IMG/VR virus record: IMGVR_UViG_3300012344_000386
Coordinates: 64,001-128,000 of that record
Length of the DNA: 64,000 nucleotides
Direction: 5' to 3' (one strand)
Source: a virus
Taxonomy: Duplodnaviria; Caudoviricetes
Positions 4,737 through 39,054 of this stretch are shown here, one piece after another. Numbering within the stretch: position 1 is the stretch's first letter; each line of letters opens with the position of its first letter. The notes beneath the pieces were generated by a model, which did no database searches, was not told where the DNA came from, and was given only the letters and a program-made list of their open reading frames with translations. Made by a program: the position numbers and the translations under genes.

Positions 4737-7700
4737 ATGGGAAAATTAAATAAAGACGAGCTTTTAGCAGGTGTTCGTAATATTATTCAAGAAAGTTTTA
4801 ATAGAGATACAGAAAACTTTGATGGCACTACTAAGTTCAATATTCATAGATATGTGAATGGTCTTATCGAAGAAGGTCATAAGAACCCCGATTTGATGAA
4901 CTATTTGGTTGAATATAATAACGCACTTTCTAATGGTGCATAGGACTTTATGCTTTTTGAACAGTTCGGACAAGGACTTACTAAATATGCAAAAGGCAAT
5001 AAGTCTGTTAAATCTGTTATTGAGCAGATGAACAATACCTTAGCAACAGATGGTGCTAATCTTGTAGGTTATCAACTTATTGAACAACTTAATGATCCTT
5101 ATATAAAGGATGAGGTTAAGTATGCTTATAATCAATATGTAGCAAATAAATGTCAGGAAACAAAGGATACATTGGTAGATGTATTGTCACCGCTTGTAGA
5201 AGAAGGAAATCCTATTGCTACAAAATTAAATATTCTTATTACAGAAGAATCTTCAATGTCCGCTAATTTTATTCATGCAGATTATGTAAATGAATCAGAA
5301 CAAAGAGATTTTGAGAAGAAGCTTCAGGAAAAACGTGATAAGAAAACAATGGACCAAATTTTCTCAAAGGTCCAACGTTATATCGATGAAAAACTTGATG
5401 AAGATGAAAAAGCAAAGTTAACAGAAAAAGAAAATTACTGTTTGAATGCTATTGCTAATAATCAAGGTATTAATCTTTCCGAACATATTAATAATATCCG
5501 TCATTCAGACGCTTCTTCCAACCAACGTCTTATGGAGGTTATTAATCTTTATTCAAACGCAATTAATCAAGGTGCATATGAAGAGAGACTTTATGAGACT
5601 TTCCTTCAGAACGTATCTAAGTTTAATTATCTTCTTCCTGTTAGTAAGGCAATGAAATCTATTGTCGAGAAAGTAGATTCAAAACGAGAGGAAATCACAC
5701 TTACTAAGATTTTGGAGGAAATGAAGGATGATCATTCTTCATTCATTTATGTAGATCTTATTCAAGAAGATGTTGCACGTTATGTAAAGGAGCCAAATGC
5801 AATTAATAGAGTTCAGTTACGTAATGCTTTAATGCCATATGCTTCTGATCCATATATTAACGAAATGTTCAATGTTATTTATTCTGATAACTCACGTAGA
5901 GCTAATGAACTTACAGAGAAAGCATTGAATATTAAGGACCAAATTAATATTATTAGAGAGAACGCTACAGTTTCTAACATTTATACACCAGTACAATATG
6001 TTAAGGAAAATGAAGCAATTTTCAATGTTAATGGTCAATTCTATGTAAAGAAAGGAAATAACATTACAGTTCTTGATGAGAAGTATGTAGATGAACTTGA
6101 TGAGAGATTTGTTGAACTTTGTAGACTTGTAAATGATCCACATGTAGAGATTAATGAGGATAATATTATTCTTCATGGTAATGATAAGTATGCTACGATT
6201 TATGAAGGCTATGTAGACCTTTATGGACATAAGGAGTCAAGAGAGTCACTTCGTAATCTTAGAGAAATGTGCATGAAGTATGATGATTACGATACAAACT
6301 TCTATATTATGTGTTCATGCCTTTTGGAGAACTTTAATAATATCGCAAAGATTGATTGGGCAAAGCATGTAACTCTTAATGAGAATAATAATATTAATGC
6401 AGATTTGTTTAGACTTGACCAAAATATTTTCATTGCAACTCATAACGATGCTATTGGACAACATACATTCTATAGAAATGTAAATCCTATTTTCTGTAAG
6501 AATAAGTTGAATGAACATATGGGTATTAACGTATCTTCATTGTTTAGTGATTTGCTTCCATCTCAAGATAAGATCATTCTTAAACTTAATGAGACAAAGA
6601 ATCAATATGAAGATTCTATCGAGAAATATGAAGATATGATTGATAAACTTAATAAGGCTCTTGAGTCTGCTTCTGATGAAAATAAAGAGAAACTTGAGAA
6701 AGCTATTTCTGACGCAGAAGAGAAACTTGATGATATTAAAGCTGAATATAAAGAATGGCAAAAACAAGCAGATGATGCAACAGGCGAAGATCATTCAGAT
6801 GATGAAGATACTGATTCAGAAGCGGATACAGAAGATACAGATGATGATACAAATGATGGTTCTGTAACTAAGGAAAAACCAAATGAACCAATGTCTGATG
6901 ATGAAGTTGACGCAAATAAAGATGAACTTTCACAACCGTTAAGTGGAGAAAATGGAGATTCTGAAGCAACTGATAACTTTAGTGATGAAGAGTCTGATGA
7001 ATCTGATGATAGAGTATCTGATGATGAATTCGCTAAGTTCTTAGGTAGTGATTCTGATGATGAAGATTCTGAGGAAGATGGTACTGGTTTTGATGATGCT
7101 GCCGCCGATGCAATAGATGCTGATAATGATGAAACAGAAGATGAACCAGATTTTGAGGATTCAGATGATGAAGATTCAGATGAAGATATGTTTACTTCTG
7201 ATGATGATAATGATCAAGATGATGAAGAAGCATTTAAGGAAGTAAGTTTCGATGACGATAATAATTCTTCAATTGATTCAGAGGACGATGACGATATTTT
7301 CGAACCAGAAGAAACAGAAGATGATACAATTTCTGATGAAGATAATGATGAAATGAATTCTGAAGATGATACTATTGGTGACACTTCTGATGAGGATGAA
7401 CCTGAAAATACAGGTATGACAACTGTTGATATGGGTACAGATGATGAAACGTCTGATGATGAAGTTGCTGAACCAGGTGACGAAGCTACAGATGTATTTG
7501 GTGGCGATACAGAAGATCCTCTTGGAACAAATACGGATGTTGAAGAAAATCCAGAGAATACACCTAAAACAGAGGAAGAAGAAAAAGAAGATGCATACCA
7601 ACCTAAATTCTCTTATAAGATTGCAGATGTAATGTTTGATGAGAATGTTAAGGAAGGTAAGAAAGAAAAATCAGGTTCTGTTATCGTAATCGTTCCTATG

Positions 7701-34402: not shown

Positions 34403-35065
34403 TTATTTCCATTTTATATAACCGTATAAACAATTTAATGTCCAAAATATGAATTGAATTACCATTATCCAATTATCAGCGATTCCCCACATAAATATAG
34501 ATACAATATCAATTATAATCCAAAATATCCATTGTTCCCTATATCTCATCATCAATAATGTTTGTGCTATAAATGCCGGTATTGTAGAAAAAGCATCCAT
34601 ATATGGTTGTGTATTATCTGTATAATTACTCATATAATACCCAAATAAAATACACAATAAAATCATTATACTACTTATTATACTTAACTGTATATTAGAA
34701 AGTCTTTTAGATTCTACTATTTGTTCATCCTTATTATAATTCTTTAACCATGTAACAATACCTATAATCATGGTAATTATATAGAATATATTTTCTACTA
34801 ATTCACCATAAAATTTCTGCTGCCATGCTAAATACATATAAGTAAATAATTGTATAAATCCAAAGAAATAAAATGAAATTTTTCTCTGTGAACATAATAC
34901 AACAGATATAATACCTGTTACTCCAGATATTAATGAAATCATTGTATCGTTTGTAATATAATATACAATAAATTGTAATATTATACCTACAAGAAGAAAC
35001 ATATGTTCAAATATGTTTCTTCCTTTTATAAACTCTGTATATAAAATATTATTAATACTTTTCAT
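34403..35065 (-). CDS. pnuC: nicotinamide riboside transporter PnuC
   Basis: Multi-TM protein with SGVTGIISVVL, QPYMDAFST, AQTLLMMRYREQWIFWIIID; overlaps nadR. Confidence 0.9.
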   Translation of the reverse strand: MKSINNILYTEFIKGRNIFEHMFLLVGIILQFIVYYITNDTMISLISGVTGIISVVLCSQRKISFYFFGFIQLFTYMYLAWQQKFYGELVENIFYIITMIIGIVTWLKNYNKDEQIVESKRLSNIQLSIISSIMILLCILFGYYMSNYTDNTQPYMDAFSTIPAFIAQTLLMMRYREQWIFWIIIDIVSIFMWGIADNWIMVIQFIFWTLNCLYGYIKWK

Positions 35066-36209
35066 AGAGTGTATTTATATAATTCTTTACATAATCAAAA
35101 TGTTCAAGATATGTACCATCTAGTTCTATAACCTTATGAAGTAAATCAAAGTCCTCCAATAGTTTAACAAGAATATGATAATTTTTCATACGTTCTTCAA
35201 TAGAACTTTGCTCCATATAACGTGTTCCATCATCGACAAATGTATTATGTGGTTTGATAAGATAAATTACATCCCAATCTACATTAGTCTGCAATGATTT
35301 TGCAAGTGGTAACAATATATCATTATATTCTTTTTCAGTAATCTGCATGTTCTTATCCATTGTATATGCTTTCGCATACATAAGAGTAACGAGATTATCA
35401 GTATCAGAAATAATAACACCTTTATTCTTATCACTGTTAAGCGCATCAAAATAATATTGTCTTTGTCCTATAAGGAATTCAACAAAATCGTTTACTGTAA
35501 TATCTGGATCTAACATACAATGTTTCGCCATATAATCCCTACCAAATTCAGTAGTATATGGAACCTGAAAATAATTACCAATATCTTTTACAAGAGTTGA
35601 TTTGCCTTCTGATGCTGTTCCTAATACAAGAATCTTCTTTGTTAGTTTTGGTTTGAATGTAGATACAATCTTATTCCAGTAAAGTTGTGGTCTTTGACGT
35701 ATAAGAGTTGCAGAAATATCATTACTTCTGTTAGAAGGTGAATTGCTGTCATATCCTACCAATACAACATTATAATTTAATTTCTCTAATGATTTAACAT
35801 AAAACTTCTCGCCAACATAAAAAGTAAGTTTCAACTCAAATGCGTTAATAGTATCGTCTACTGTAAAAGGCCAATTATCTTTATGGTCTAAAACTTTGTT
35901 AACAATAAGTTTCTTCACATAATCAGTCCATACTTTCCAATTATGTTCAGACATACTTTCATCAATACCTAATTCTGTATCATTAACAGTAACAACTTTT
36001 ATAATCTCATCGCCTTTAAAATATTCTCTAATAAGTCGTTCTCGTTGCTTTATATTCAAACCTATTTCATTTGCACGTGGTTCATCTGTATATCCACATA
36101 CAACAACATAAACAATATCTGATTCTTTCTTTGCTCGCATAATAACATCAAGATGACCTTGATGCATTGGACAATATCCGCCAAAACAAATTCCTATATT
36201 CTTACTCAT
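35052..36209 (-). CDS. nadR: NadR-like bifunctional NMN adenylyltransferase / ribosylnicotinamide kinase
   Basis: HQGH nucleotidyltransferase motif, ISATLIR, P-loop GTASEGKST, EFGRDY, SDTD, FVDDGTR. Confidence 0.9.
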   Translation of the reverse strand: MSKNIGICFGGYCPMHQGHLDVIMRAKKESDIVYVVVCGYTDEPRANEIGLNIKQRERLIREYFKGDEIIKVVTVNDTELGIDESMSEHNWKVWTDYVKKLIVNKVLDHKDNWPFTVDDTINAFELKLTFYVGEKFYVKSLEKLNYNVVLVGYDSNSPSNRSNDISATLIRQRPQLYWNKIVSTFKPKLTKKILVLGTASEGKSTLVKDIGNYFQVPYTTEFGRDYMAKHCMLDPDITVNDFVEFLIGQRQYYFDALNSDKNKGVIISDTDNLVTLMYAKAYTMDKNMQITEKEYNDILLPLAKSLQTNVDWDVIYLIKPHNTFVDDGTRYMEQSSIEERMKNYHILVKLLEDFDLLHKVIELDGTYLEHFDYVKNYINTLYEKY

Positions 36210-36229
36210 TTTTATTAAATTTAAATATA

Positions 36230-36643
36230 TTAATCTATTTCTATTTCAATAAAAGATTTCATCTCAAAAGAATAAGAACCTTCATTGTGAGTAGCATCCC
36301 ACCAACAATCTTCATTATTATCTCCTATCCATATTTTTTCTGAATAATTAGGAATAAGAAGAAATGTACGTTCCCATCCCCAATTCTCATCATATTCTAC
36401 AAATATCTTTGTATTAGTAGGAATATGAATGAATGTGTCATGCATAAATATATGTGAATTTACATCATAAATGATGTCATACATATTAAAATGAATTTTA
36501 ATACCTTGTTTAATAGGTTTCTTATTCTTTATTCTATCTATTAATTCATCTATAGTTATCATCTCATCAGGAAAGTTTCCAGATTCAATTTCAAAAGGAT
36601 CAATCTCTACTACATTAACTAATTCATGATTTATATAATACAT
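36230..36643 (-). CDS. hypothetical protein
   Basis: 137-aa first gene of the operon, downstream of a TATCTTTG promoter. Confidence 0.7.
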   Translation of the reverse strand: MYYINHELVNVVEIDPFEIESGNFPDEMITIDELIDRIKNKKPIKQGIKIHFNMYDIIYDVNSHIFMHDTFIHIPTNTKIFVEYDENWGWERTFLLIPNYSEKIWIGDNNEDCWWDATHNEGSYSFEMKSFIEIEID

Positions 36644-36683
36644 AATTAATAATTCAACTTTATTTTACTTATAATTTATATTT

Positions 36684-36691
36684 CAAAGATA
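36684..36691 (-). promoter_or_regulatory. Bacteroidota -7 promoter element (TATCTTTG)
   Basis: TGTATCTTTG ~40 nt upstream of the 36643 start; drives the nadR-pnuC operon. Confidence 0.7.
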
Positions 36692-36710
36692 CACATTTTA
36701 TTTTAAATAA

Positions 36711-36743
36711 AAAAGTCTATAATGAAAACCATTATAGACTTTT
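36711..36743 (-). terminator. intrinsic terminator
   Basis: AAAAGTCTATAATG / CATTATAGACTTTT. Confidence 0.75.
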
Positions 36744-37032
36744 AGAAAATAAACAAAACAAATTAAAAATAACTTAATTCTGTCTTATCATCTTGGTTTG
36801 ATTTTATATGTCATTAGTTTGATGTAGTAACATATATTAAGTTATTTTCAAACAATTAAAAATTCAATAAAAATACATATAATGATGTTACCATACGTTC
36901 ATCCTTTTACAGCTCCTACGTTAAGATAATTCTGTTATGTTTTATCTGTTATTATGATCACTTATAACATTAGACATAATTTGCTCACCTTCTCTTACTC
37001 GCTCTTCGTGAGAATATATGTATTTAAATTTG

Positions 37033-37124
37033 TTTATAAGAGGGAGTCGAACCCTTAATAACCTCATACCGTTAATCCCTTCTCGATTTATCATCGAGCG
37101 TGCATTCCCGCTACACTATTATAA
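37033..37124 (-). ncRNA. degenerate tRNA-like element (Ile-GAT-like loop, long variable region)
   Basis: TTATAA acceptor; D arm GTGT/GCAC; CTCGA-TGATAAA-TCGAG arm; AGGG-TTCGACT-CCCT T arm. Non-canonical acceptor and loop. Confidence 0.5.
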
Positions 37125-37345
37125 TTTTTACATTTAATATCAATCCAAAAATTATCTACAAATAATTTTCTTCAATCTTTTAAACGTCAACTACTAATAT
37201 AATTGCAGTTATACTTTCGCCTTAGTAACTATACATTAATTAGTTACTTCAATCTCTTGATTATCATTTTAAGAATTATCATAATTTCTTATACTATAAT
37301 AATATCTATGTTAGATAATTGCATCCTTTTCATTATTATAAGGAG

Positions 37346-37443
37346 TGGTTATGGAGGGACTCGAACTCGTCACCGCAATACCTTTCTTCCATTGATATTA
37401 AAATATCAATTAGATACCTCATTAACCATTATGTAACATAACC
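37346..37443 (-). ncRNA. tRNA-like element with hairpin insertion in the anticodon arm
   Basis: Acceptor GGTTATG/CATAACC+A; D loop AATGGTTA; T loop TTCGAGT; inserted ATTGATAT/ATATCAAT hairpin. Confidence 0.5.
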
Positions 37444-37448
37444 AAAAT

Positions 37449-37768
37449 AGATACGATTTTTAACAGTTTCCATTTTTATTTCGAAATTATTATATGGACT
37501 TGTACTGACGACGTATCTTCTTTTTCATTGTTTCTCAACAATATAGTCAGATTAAAAATGCACAACTAAAAATCCAAACACACCGGCTCCGTTGGAATAC
37601 TCCTCATGCTCATATGAGACATTTCGTTAATTCTCATATGAATGTTAAATAATGATACATAACCGATGAAGGTTTTTCAACTATTACCGAGACTATTCGT
37701 TATCACGACTTACGAACCATGAGGTTACCGAACTCATGTTACCTATGGCTTATAGGTTGTATCACCAT
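37449..37768 (-). ncRNA. structured RNA (multi-way junction plus hairpins)
   Basis: ATGGTGATACA/TGTATCATTAT closes ACCTAT/ATAGGT, CATGAG/CTCATG and TTCGT/ACGAA; then TCATATGAGA/TCTCATATGA, a GAGA tetraloop hairpin and AGATACG/CGTATCT. Confidence 0.55.
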
Positions 37769-37785
37769 TTTTATTTCTTACAATA

Positions 37786-37793
37786 CAAAGATA
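37786..37793 (-). promoter_or_regulatory. Bacteroidota -7 promoter element (TATCTTTG) in front of the RNA cluster
   Basis: TGTATCTTTG with no sizeable ORF downstream for ~1 kb. Confidence 0.65.
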
Positions 37794-37849
37794 CACATTC
37801 TTTTTTAATTAAAAAAATAATTATGAATCTTTTTTTAATTTTTTATTTA

Positions 37850-38129
37850 GACAGTATATAGGGAATCGAACCCAGAATGTTATATTGGTCCGCCATATTA
37901 TTATGGTTACATTCTAATTGCAATTATTCACCATAATCTCAAATGGTATATATGTTATATATGCGTATTAACCTTTTGCAATATTAGTCTTTACTATATA
38001 ACATATAACTCTTATATTGTTTCGTGAGTAACGATTAACACTTTCAGTACCATTACTGAAATACATATAGTCTTACTAGATATGCACTATTTTATTATCA
38101 TGTACTTAGATAACAAAATTATATACTGT
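37850..38129 (-). ncRNA. 280-nt multi-hairpin RNA closed by a tRNA-like acceptor stem and T arm
   Basis: ACAGTATAT/ATATACTGT terminal helix; GGG-TTCGATT-CCC at the 3' end; at least 6 internal hairpins. Confidence 0.55.
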
Positions 38130-38141
38130 ATATTTTTTATA

Positions 38142-38654
38142 TTAAATATTACGTATAAAGTCTAATAATAAAGGATCTTGTACTGTAAATTTAATATTTC
38201 TTATTTCATATTTCGTTAATGTCATTCTATATTTCTTATTATGTTGAATCTTATAATATTCTTTCATATCTATATTAACAGGGCAATGTTTACTGTTAAC
38301 ACGAAATACTTGCCAATAACAATTATTATAATGTTTCTTATTCAAATTGTCTGCAATATCACGCAAATAAAACCAAATCCATTGGTTTGGAGAATTTGGA
38401 TTCATATAAGCATCAGGAATATAATCATGTGCAAAAGAAGCTTTTCTACCACCATTTTCTTTTAGATATTTCTTTGCTTTTTTCTTTCTCTCAGGAAAAT
38501 CTCGATTCTTCCACGGAAAATCTCCTTTACTTACAGAATACAACTGTACTCTCTCATCATCACATCCCATAGAGAATGAATTCTCTACATAACCACAATA
38601 TGATTCATCAAGTGCATTATATCCTAAAATAATATAAAATTTATTATTTTTCAT
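38142..38654 (-). CDS. hypothetical protein
   Basis: 170-aa ORF overlapping the upstream stop. Confidence 0.7.
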   Translation of the reverse strand: MKNNKFYIILGYNALDESYCGYVENSFSMGCDDERVQLYSVSKGDFPWKNRDFPERKKKAKKYLKENGGRKASFAHDYIPDAYMNPNSPNQWIWFYLRDIADNLNKKHYNNCYWQVFRVNSKHCPVNIDMKEYYKIQHNKKYRMTLTKYEIRNIKFTVQDPLLLDFIRNI

Positions 38655-39054
38655 AATTATATTTCTTTATTAAATTAGATATTACTTTTTTAGTCACAAA
38701 ACATCCTATACTATATCCTATCATCAATGATATAAAATATAGTAATATATAAGGTCCTATAATATTCAATGTATTATCACTTAATATATAAATATCAATT
38801 CCAAAACATGCGAAAATTATACATAAGCCTAAATACAATAAAGGAATTCCAAGAAAACCTATTGGTGAAGCAAATAATACACATGGAATTATAAAACGAT
38901 TTCCACATTTAAATAATGGTGATAAATCATCTATAGGTCCTAACTTATATGTATATTCTTCACTATCTCCTTTTTCACCAAGAACTCCGCTAAAGAATCC
39001 TATAAAAATTCCATAGAATAAGACTATTATTGATATTATTTCTGTTAAAATCAT
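38644..39054 (-). CDS. hypothetical membrane protein
   Basis: 3-4 hydrophobic segments. Confidence 0.7.
   Translation of the reverse strand: MILTEIISIIVLFYGIFIGFFSGVLGEKGDSEEYTYKLGPIDDLSPLFKCGNRFIIPCVLFASPIGFLGIPLLYLGLCIIFACFGIDIYILSDNTLNIIGPYILLYFISLMIGYSIGCFVTKKVISNLIKKYNYEK

Follow-up and report, generated by a model that had tools for sequence, protein, structure and literature searches.

A region of about 1,065 nt on the minus strand of a Lak megaphage genome, free of credible open reading frames (ORFs) and bracketed by a candidate promoter and an intrinsic terminator, is best read as a non-coding RNA operon in which structured modules are punctuated by two tRNA mimics, an interpretation held here with somewhat better than even confidence. 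In transcriptional order, the unit comprises a 5' module, a GNRA hairpin, a long interrupted helix, tRNA-like unit 1, a spacer of hairpins, tRNA-like unit 2 and a 3' module. Both tRNA-shaped units keep the acceptor stem, the GG of the D loop and the T loop, and their anticodon regions are non-canonical. The window, i.e. the whole stretch of DNA that was analysed, covers 64,000 nt (bases 64001-128000 of a 249-kb virus record, IMGVR_UViG_3300012344_000386, here G000:C1) with a G+C content of ~25%, and all coordinates of the RNA unit are read on the minus strand. A first-pass annotation of this window had proposed a promoter-to-terminator unit filled with structured RNA at this position. That outline holds, as the unit is ORF-free and contains conserved hairpin modules, two tRNA-shaped elements and compensated helices.

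The limits of the unit are defined by two signals that are kept across Lak clades. At the upstream end, the annotation had marked TATCTTTG (37793-37786) as the promoter; this is the core of the longer motif TGTATCTTTG, with a T-run ~12 nt upstream, and the TAnnTTTG inside TGTATCTTTG corresponds to the Bacteroidota-type -7 motif. Transcription would then start near 37778-37776. The 249-kb record contains the motif 24 times, whereas its composition predicts 1.04 copies, and the strand of the copies tracks gene orientation, flipping near C1:126-128 kb. Their common layout is a T-run, ~12 nt and TGTATCTTTGTATTGT, in which the T-run of an upstream terminator often doubles as the upstream box. In a BLAST search, the ~90-nt promoter region was the sole part of the query that is repeated within the record, and the promoter is conserved in Lak-A/C. 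At the downstream end, the terminator that the annotation had placed here is the only terminator-like site in 36600-38150 (mean of 0.1 in shuffles), and the next promoter, TGTATCTTTG at 36693-36684, uses the T-run of this terminator as its own upstream box. Lak-A/C genomes carry a non-homologous hairpin with a T-run at the terminator position, again followed by the next promoter copy.

The stretch between these signals encodes no protein. The longest ORF overlapping 36650-38140 has 77 aa and lies on the opposite strand, which applies to code 11, to the Lak genetic code with TAG=Q (code 15) and to code 4, so that the annotated absence of a credible ORF stands. Substitutions relative to Lak-A1 fall without codon phase in the unit (76/64/65, p=0.52), and the neighbouring NadR gene, used as a control, shows a clear phase (59/39/132, p=3e-14). 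Insertions and deletions (indels) relative to Lak-A1 are mostly not multiples of three.

Judged by sequence identity, the source genome is a B-clade Lak megaphage, since the 1,491-base query around the locus matches Prevotella phages Lak-B2 and Lak-B4 over its full length (99.2% and 98.8% identity). Lak-A1 (four records), Lak-A2 and Lak-C1 match it over ~60% of its length at 74-75% identity. Exact-pattern scans of IMG/VR and of metagenome contigs added loci that are all of the Lak-A/C type (L014, L015 and L033-L039; 95-97% identical to Lak-A1), while 16 other pattern matches, which have the 16-20-nt pattern alone in common with the locus, were set aside as chance. A third, B-like Lak lineage comes from four DNA runs of one study (X1-X4) and is described through the 40 of its 77 differences that were listed.

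Conservation in related phages is evident for every module. Between the window and Lak-A1, identity amounts to 77% for the 5' module, 85% for the long helix, 73% for tRNA-like unit 1, 70% for the spacer, 83% for tRNA-like unit 2 and 77% for the 3' module, in comparison to 80% for NadR and 73% for an upstream gene of 170 aa. For the tail that precedes the terminator, identity falls to 65% and the alignment contains 50 gap columns. With 70-85% identity between Lak-A/C and Lak-B, the modules thus show about the same degree of conservation as the genes beside them, and the sequence adjacent to the modules has decayed. Indels respect the module borders, which suggests independent units.

Homolog covariation, one of the checks that the annotation had suggested, yielded an excess of compensatory changes. 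In a structure-blind test, the minimum free energy (MFE) pairs of one sequence were checked in the other clade against a null model that redraws the substitution of each column. From the window to Lak-A1, 173 of 241 aligned pairs were kept (155.3±7.4 expected, P=0.009), including 20 pairs changed on both sides (9.0 expected, P=0.0008). In the reverse direction, 175 of 237 pairs were kept (153.3 expected, P=0.001), 26 of them with double changes (9.3 expected; reached in 0 of 5000 samples). Folding z-scores, the second suggested check, gave a divided answer: a stretch of 896 nt folds better than its shuffles (z = -4.2, 20 shuffles) and sliding 150-nt windows average -1.9 within the unit (n=8) versus -0.7 in the flanks (n=34), but the individual modules score weakly, as detailed below. 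Covariation is the stronger support for structured RNA at this locus, and the thermodynamic support is weak.

Table 1. Features of the RNA unit and other positions referred to in the text; window coordinates unless a genome is named.
Feature	Position	Strand	Description or basis
Phage promoter (predicted from sequence)	37778..37830	-	T-run box 37820-37811 and TGTATCTTTG 37795-37786
5' module, ~210 nt	37560..37770	-	Consensus helices P2-P5
Helix P2	37738-37718	-	5' module
Helix P3	37717-37695	-	5' module
Helix P4	37641-37610	-	5' module; 10-bp hairpin
Helix P5	37596-37573	-	5' module
GAGA-tetraloop hairpin	37527..37542	-	AUUGUU-GAGA-AACAAU; sequence, MFE fold, alignment
Long interrupted helix	37449..37518	-	Base AGAUACG/CGUAUCU; directly upstream of tRNA-like unit 1
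tRNA-like unit 1 (element 2)	37346..37443	-	7-bp acceptor stem, D arm with GG, T loop UUCGAGU
Spacer module of conserved hairpins	37126..37345	-	Includes 37249-37227 and long hairpin 37190-37130
tRNA-like unit 2	37032..37125	-	Class-II (long variable arm) tRNA-Tyr-like RNA
3' module, ~150 nt	36880..37031	-	Invariant blocks; covarying hairpin 36903-36884
Intrinsic terminator	36711..36743	-	15-pair hairpin and T-run
Promoter copies in the window	22272+, 36693-, 37795-, 40103-, 44925-, 61830-		Motif match
PF07282 matches, Lak-B2 (W01)	92922, 218465, 232755, 326461		
PF07282 matches, Lak-A1 (W02)	169433, 292620, 296486, 473896		

The 5' module is supported by a consensus of 32 pairs, in which 99.4% of the cells are paired and five pairs have changed on both sides (0-1 in slid controls). 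The underlying alignment contains 11 sequences, after exclusion of C1 and V15 as duplicates and of L039, in which the module is absent. Helix P2 is kept in five spellings (window, Lak-A1, Lak-A2, the third lineage and a ~3-kb contig of a second replicon, described further below), with double changes of the third lineage at 37736/37720 and 37735/37721. A long-range pairing of 37756-37754 with 37604-37602 is possible. A covariance model of the module (R1) finds a single copy each in G000, Lak-B2 and Lak-A1, the next best hit having E=0.09, and a search of the related 636-kb phage LR756504.1 with R1 found no 5' module (best E=2.3). Among the structures that the annotation had listed for this part of the unit, the 10-bp perfect hairpin (P4), the GAGA tetraloop hairpin and the long interrupted helix are all present. 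Its 120-nt multi-way junction (37768-37649) is not borne out by the comparison with Lak-A: it appears in the MFE fold of the window itself, but its closing stem is absent from the consensus structure, 11 nt of its 5' strand and an entire arm have no counterpart in Lak-A as aligned, and the Lak-A1 module folded alone forms no multi-way junction.

Downstream of the 5' module, Lak-A/C sequences carry a CUAC-GUAAA-GUAG hairpin at the site of the GAGA hairpin. This 17-nt unit with a GUAA(A) loop is tandemly duplicated in Lak-A2, C1, V15, M35 and M37 and single in Lak-A1. In the long interrupted helix, Lak-A1 preserves 15 of the 15 MFE pairs of the window, one of them through a change from C-G to U-A (37496/37471). 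Its apex is deleted in L035 and L039, and the base is retained in both. L039, a 60-kb metagenome contig of Lak-A type, differs more strongly at its positions 280-400, where the promoter through TATTGTA is joined directly to the shortened helix. The 5' module is lost in its entirety (~280 nt), whereas the two tRNA-like units are retained together with the spacer and the 3' module. Since L039 falls within the Lak-A type (95% identity to A1), this arrangement is most simply a deletion.

The two remaining non-tRNA modules also keep pairs through double changes. In the spacer, the apex of the long hairpin covaries (37168-37149), and nine double-change pairs are kept against 3.9 expected (P=0.017), or 13 against 4.6 in the reverse direction (P=0.0004). 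In the 3' module, five double-change pairs are kept against 1.8 expected (P=0.03; reverse 6 against 2.1, P=0.016). The longest invariant blocks of the unit are found in this module, namely UUCUCACGAAGAGCGAG...GAAGGUGAGCA (37012-36980) and ACGUAGGAGCUG.AAAAG...AACGUAUGGUAA (36920-36887).

Both tRNA-like elements predicted by the annotation are present. Unit 1 (37443-37346) matches the Rfam tRNA model over its full length with 17.5 bits, below the cut-off of 29 bits, and carries a 34-nt insertion where the model has the anticodon arm. Its anticodon loop is replaced in the window by a 30-nt insert with a hairpin (37409-37392); in Lak-A/C the insert has ~105 nt and is near-identical among the sequences of this type. 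The acceptor stem reads GGUUAUG/CAUAACC in the window and GUCUGUA/UACAGAC in Lak-A/C; all seven pairs are always paired and four of the seven have changed on both sides (10 distinct of 14 sequences). Covariation extends to the anticodon-type stem (37413/37382) and, in the third lineage, to the T stem, where a G-C to U-A double change occurs at 37368/37356. This lineage also carries a 3-nt deletion that shortens the insert hairpin and still preserves it. The discriminator is A in the window and in Lak-A, and CCA is not encoded.

Unit 2 (37125-37032) scores 26.0 bits with the Rfam tRNA model (RF00005; gathering cut-off 29) and is the single tRNA called by ARAGORN in the 64-kb window, at 37124-37032 as Tyr(ata). 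Within the cloverleaf, the D stem (4/4) and the anticodon stem (5/5) are complete, the acceptor stem has 6 of 7 pairs and the T stem is less stable (3/5). Among the six distinct sequences of 14, double changes affect six of the 26 pairs and are confined to the anticodon stem and the variable arm (reached in 0 of 500 shuffles; 0-2 in slid controls). The anticodon loop is UGAUAAA in the window (anticodon AUA) and UGRUAAA in all six distinct sequences, each with G at position 33, a position that is almost always U in tRNAs. In addition, all six have A·A at pair 1-72, C is the discriminator and CCA is not encoded. The anticodon is GUA in Lak-A1, A2, C1, L039 and the third lineage (37091 T>C), and position 34 (window 37091) has changed from G to A only in the window, Lak-B2 and Lak-B4, where AUA is therefore a recent change. 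The same record encodes 14 canonical tRNAs with scores of 48.6-66.6 bits at C1:1-9 kb, ~92 kb from the locus, including a tRNA-Tyr(GTA) with loop CUGUAAA and discriminator A. This cluster (C1:1-9000) also contains a tRNA-Asn(ATT), a tRNA-Trp of 92 nt and weak tRNA-like matches of 13.7-18.9 bits (2091-2166, 2244-2305 and 5399-5456), and degenerate tRNA-like elements are therefore not confined to the RNA locus. When introns were allowed and the threshold was lowered, the calls of ARAGORN were scattered and contradicted one another, and they were not used. No Rfam match to transfer-messenger RNA (tmRNA) or to Y RNA-like RNA (YrlA) was obtained at the locus, and a tmRNA fragment match in Lak-A1 (10.5 bits) spans just 13 nt of the T arm.

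Alternatively, the two units could be true tRNAs that take part in decoding, one a tRNA-Phe(GAA) from which an intron is removed and the other an additional tRNA-Tyr, surrounded by the plain leader, spacer and trailer of a tRNA operon; this alternative, which the description of intron-bearing Lak tRNAs by Devoto et al. implies, is considered unlikely. The Lak-A loop of unit 1 starts AUGAAAA and provides U33, GAA and A37 if the stem is read as GGUAC/GUAUU, the window loop reads CU...GAAAG around a 25-nt insert, the discriminator is A in both clades, and intron-bearing Phe(GAA) and Tyr(GTA) tRNAs are listed for Lak phages in the accessible text of Devoto et al. (2019, PMC6784885). In the Tyr-like unit, the sequence GUAAA persists in Lak-A/C, L039 and the third lineage, and the anticodon stem and variable arm covary. 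However, the insert of unit 1 differs in position between clades (after 33 versus after 37/38), and the shared UGGAAGAA may belong to the insert rather than to an anticodon. Neither a splicing endonuclease (PF01974) nor RtcB (PF01139) was found in the two complete Lak genomes, Lak-B2 and Lak-A1. For the Tyr-like unit, the G33 of all copies, the A1·A72 mismatch, discriminator C, the AUA anticodon of window, B2 and B4, and the canonical tRNA-Tyr of the same genome argue against decoding. Finally, the spacers are conserved with compensatory changes, which is not required of plain spacers.

The preferred reading is a non-coding RNA operon punctuated by tRNA mimics. In mitochondrial transcripts and in the case of MALAT1 mascRNA, RNase P and RNase Z cut at tRNA-shaped elements without decoding function and thereby free the RNAs on either side. 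The Lak units resemble these elements in conserving the acceptor stem and T arm while leaving the anticodon region free, but the precedents are eukaryotic or organellar and processing of the Lak transcript is a prediction from shape. Host RNase P and RNase Z would cut the primary transcript at the two tRNA-shaped units and thereby release three structured RNAs of ~330, 220 and 320 nt along with two tRNA mimics that are probably non-decoding. The released products would act as stable RNAs, and, as a speculative best guess, they might bind or decoy host factors that handle or target tRNAs during infection. A Ro (TROVE) protein was not found in Lak-B2 or Lak-A1, the two complete Lak genomes searched.

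Non-coding RNAs from phage tRNA regions have precedents. In T4, RNAC and RNAD, two small RNAs, are co-transcribed with tRNA genes, and their role is described as unknown in the accessible text of Uzan and Miller (2010, PMC3014915). Compared by description, both phages combine non-coding RNAs with tRNA-type units, but the T4 tRNAs are canonical and decoding, whereas the Lak units are non-canonical and the canonical Lak tRNAs lie far from the locus. A possible parallel of a different kind is offered by T5, whose tRNAs offset host defences that cleave tRNAs, e.g. PARIS or retron effectors, and NAD (nicotinamide adenine dinucleotide)-salvage genes such as NadR and PnuC are typical counter-defence cargo. 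The Lak locus shares with this setting an extra, variant Tyr-like copy with an altered anticodon loop that adjoins NadR and PnuC, a likeness by guilt of association. G33 and A1·A72 make decoding by the Lak unit doubtful in comparison, and we know of no corresponding tRNA-cleaving nuclease for Prevotella.

The annotation had further pointed to GOLLD and ROOL as ornate phage RNAs that often adjoin or embed tRNAs; membership in these families was not supported. An Rfam scan of 36000-38700 with E up to 10 returned only a sub-threshold tRNA match and chance-level matches to small nucleolar RNAs and microRNAs, and the whole 64-kb window had no match at gathering score; the unit is therefore not assigned to either family. 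A resemblance in layout remains, as GOLLD and ROOL are likewise phage-encoded, large and ORF-free and adjoin or embed tRNAs. According to the accessible text of Kretsch et al. (10.1101/2024.12.08.627333), GOLLD has a 5' region of lower conservation, a 3' region that is conserved universally, and sometimes tRNAs in the linker. The Lak unit parallels this arrangement with a 5' module that is dispensable in L039 and a 3' module that holds the longest invariant blocks, and the 896-nt fold with its z-score of -4.2 would also suit a single ornate RNA of about 1 kb that is assembled, possibly multimeric, and left uncut. Even so, this explanation is given only a small chance. The Lak modules are much smaller (just ~150 nt for the 3' module), the pattern of indels suggests independent units, and neither an integrated fold nor multimers are indicated. 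Conserved long-range pairing that would join the 5' module to the 3' module was not found, the distant pairs of the 896-nt MFE fold lying outside the covariation test.

Several observations weigh against an operon of structured modules and have to be set against the covariation. In each direction of the structure-blind test, 53 MFE pairs are broken by one-sided changes, and a further 15 and 9 are broken by double changes; conservation is equal in paired and unpaired columns (0.71 versus 0.72). Folding of individual modules is weak (z = -2.2 for the 5' module, -2.2 for the spacer and -1.1 for the 3' module), the 5' module of Lak-A1 folds no better than its shuffles (z = +0.66), and two coding windows in the flanks reach -3.1 and -4.9. 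When substitutions of the third lineage are placed on the MFE fold of the window, 30 positions divide into 15 unpaired, 6 with the pair kept, 9 with the pair broken and none compensated, and compensations in this lineage are visible solely on the consensus helices, among the 40 of 77 differences listed. The power to detect covariation is low because the comparison consists of two deep lineages and one partial lineage. Moreover, both tRNA-like units remain below the Rfam tRNA cut-off, and the natural variant L039 lacks the 5' module, which is therefore not essential to the unit.

Some of these points would fit a decaying remnant of a tRNA cluster, i.e. pseudo-tRNAs and neutral spacer that look structured through AT-richness: the sub-threshold units, the anticodon mutated in the sublineage of B2, B4 and the window, the weak z-scores down to the +0.66 of Lak-A1 and the many MFE pairs broken between clades. 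Such decay is nevertheless improbable, because the modules match the coding flanks in identity and decay, with many gaps, is seen in the adjoining tail, compensatory changes are in excess, and both clades retain the promoter and the terminator, the latter through a non-homologous hairpin. Least probable is a DNA-level element (replication origin, packaging or protein-binding site) or a hidden gene in an unusual code, for which the AT-rich, ORF-free sequence with its many inverted repeats and invariant blocks could speak, as the T loops and D loops of the tRNA-shaped units point to RNA, promoter and terminator bracket the stretch on one strand, the GC skew has no turning point at the locus, and neither an ORF under the three codes nor codon periodicity was detected.

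The unit can be set beside earlier descriptions of Lak genomes. Many regions of up to ~1.5 kb that are gene-free even under code 15 were reported by Devoto et al. (2019, PMC6784885; 10.1101/356790), and some Lak intergenic regions rank with the most strongly expressed sections of the genome (Devoto et al., 2019, PMC6784885). The accessible text of the same paper mentions oversized 'pseudo tRNAs with enigmatic introns', including Phe(GAA) and Tyr(GTA), and that of Crisci et al. (2021) gives tRNA counts only. The locus agrees with these reports in phage group, in its ~1-kb ORF-free region and in an oversized tRNA-like gene whose anticodon region carries an insert, and its Tyr(GTA)-type and possible Phe(GAA)-type units correspond to isotypes listed with introns in the accessible text. 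Unit 1 fits the description of a Lak pseudo-tRNA with intron, being oversized, interrupted in the anticodon region and conserved across Lak clades. The accessible text of Devoto et al. differs from the present analysis in that none of its intergenic regions is given a structure, a map of modules or covariation, and in the literature searched, figures and supplementary tables lying outside the search, no RNA structure for a Lak intergenic region was found.

Phage tRNA-region non-coding RNAs, expressed Lak intergenic regions and intron-bearing pseudo-tRNAs were thus already known. The present analysis adds a first anatomy (promoter, modules, tRNA mimics and terminator) for one unexplained large intergenic region of Lak, as well as several candidate RNA families with covariation support. 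The proposed tRNA-like punctuation represents a testable model for how a megaphage makes stable non-coding RNAs. If the operon reading is wrong and the locus holds only odd tRNAs and spacers, the finding becomes an ordinary one.

Part of the 5' module also occurs on a second replicon. In the four DNA runs X1-X4, contigs of ~3 kb match 37719-37596 alone at ~90% identity (12 differences, 1 gap), and their depth is unlike that of the Lak-like contig (146 versus 16 in X4; 4.8 versus ~20 in X3). The flanks of the ~3-kb contigs are GC-richer, and homology continues into them with compensated helices P2 and P5. Here, P2 reads AUGG/CCAU, and P5 is spelled GUAG/CUAC in the ~3-kb contigs, CCAA/UUGG in the window and GUAA/UUAC in Lak-A. 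This replicon was not found in IMG/VR or in GTDB genomes by exact patterns, nor among plasmids by blastn, and it could represent the Prevotella host or another mobile element. A tentative extension of the operon reading, to which about one chance in four is given in our judgement, is that the unit exemplifies a new class of phage RNA operon, in which non-decoding tRNA mimics punctuate and release several new structured RNAs and at least one of these, the 5' module, belongs to a family shared with the GC-richer and more abundant replicon of the same gut samples. If the module is indeed shared, this would point to a captured or exchanged functional RNA that is expressed from a phage promoter and perhaps hijacks an RNA-binding machine of the host, and it would represent a case in which a huge phage and its surroundings have exchanged an RNA gene.

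Downstream of the RNA unit, the minus strand encodes a NadR-type nicotinamide mononucleotide adenylyltransferase/kinase (385 aa) and a PnuC-type transporter (220 aa) at 34403-36209. In Lak-A/C, NadR begins directly after the next promoter, whereas Lak-B genomes contain an extra ORF of 137 aa without Pfam match between this promoter and NadR. Upstream of the promoter of the unit, a third T-arm-bearing element is located at 37850-37935 on the minus strand, with the loop TTCGATT. Its T-arm stem is perfect in Lak-A/C (TGTGG/CCACA) and has 3 bp in the window, and it is accompanied by a covarying hairpin (ATTATGG/CCATAAT versus ATTATAG/CTATAAT); Infernal made no tRNA call on this element at E<=1. 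In Lak-A/C, the element is followed by an ORF of ~70 aa that Lak-B lacks. A role of the 5' module as a TnpB guide RNA was considered and dropped, given that no TnpB gene lies near the locus and that R1 matches nothing beside TnpB genes. The complete Lak genomes each contain four matches to the TnpB/Cas12f zinc-ribbon domain (PF07282; Table 1), several of them in genes with in-frame TAG codons.

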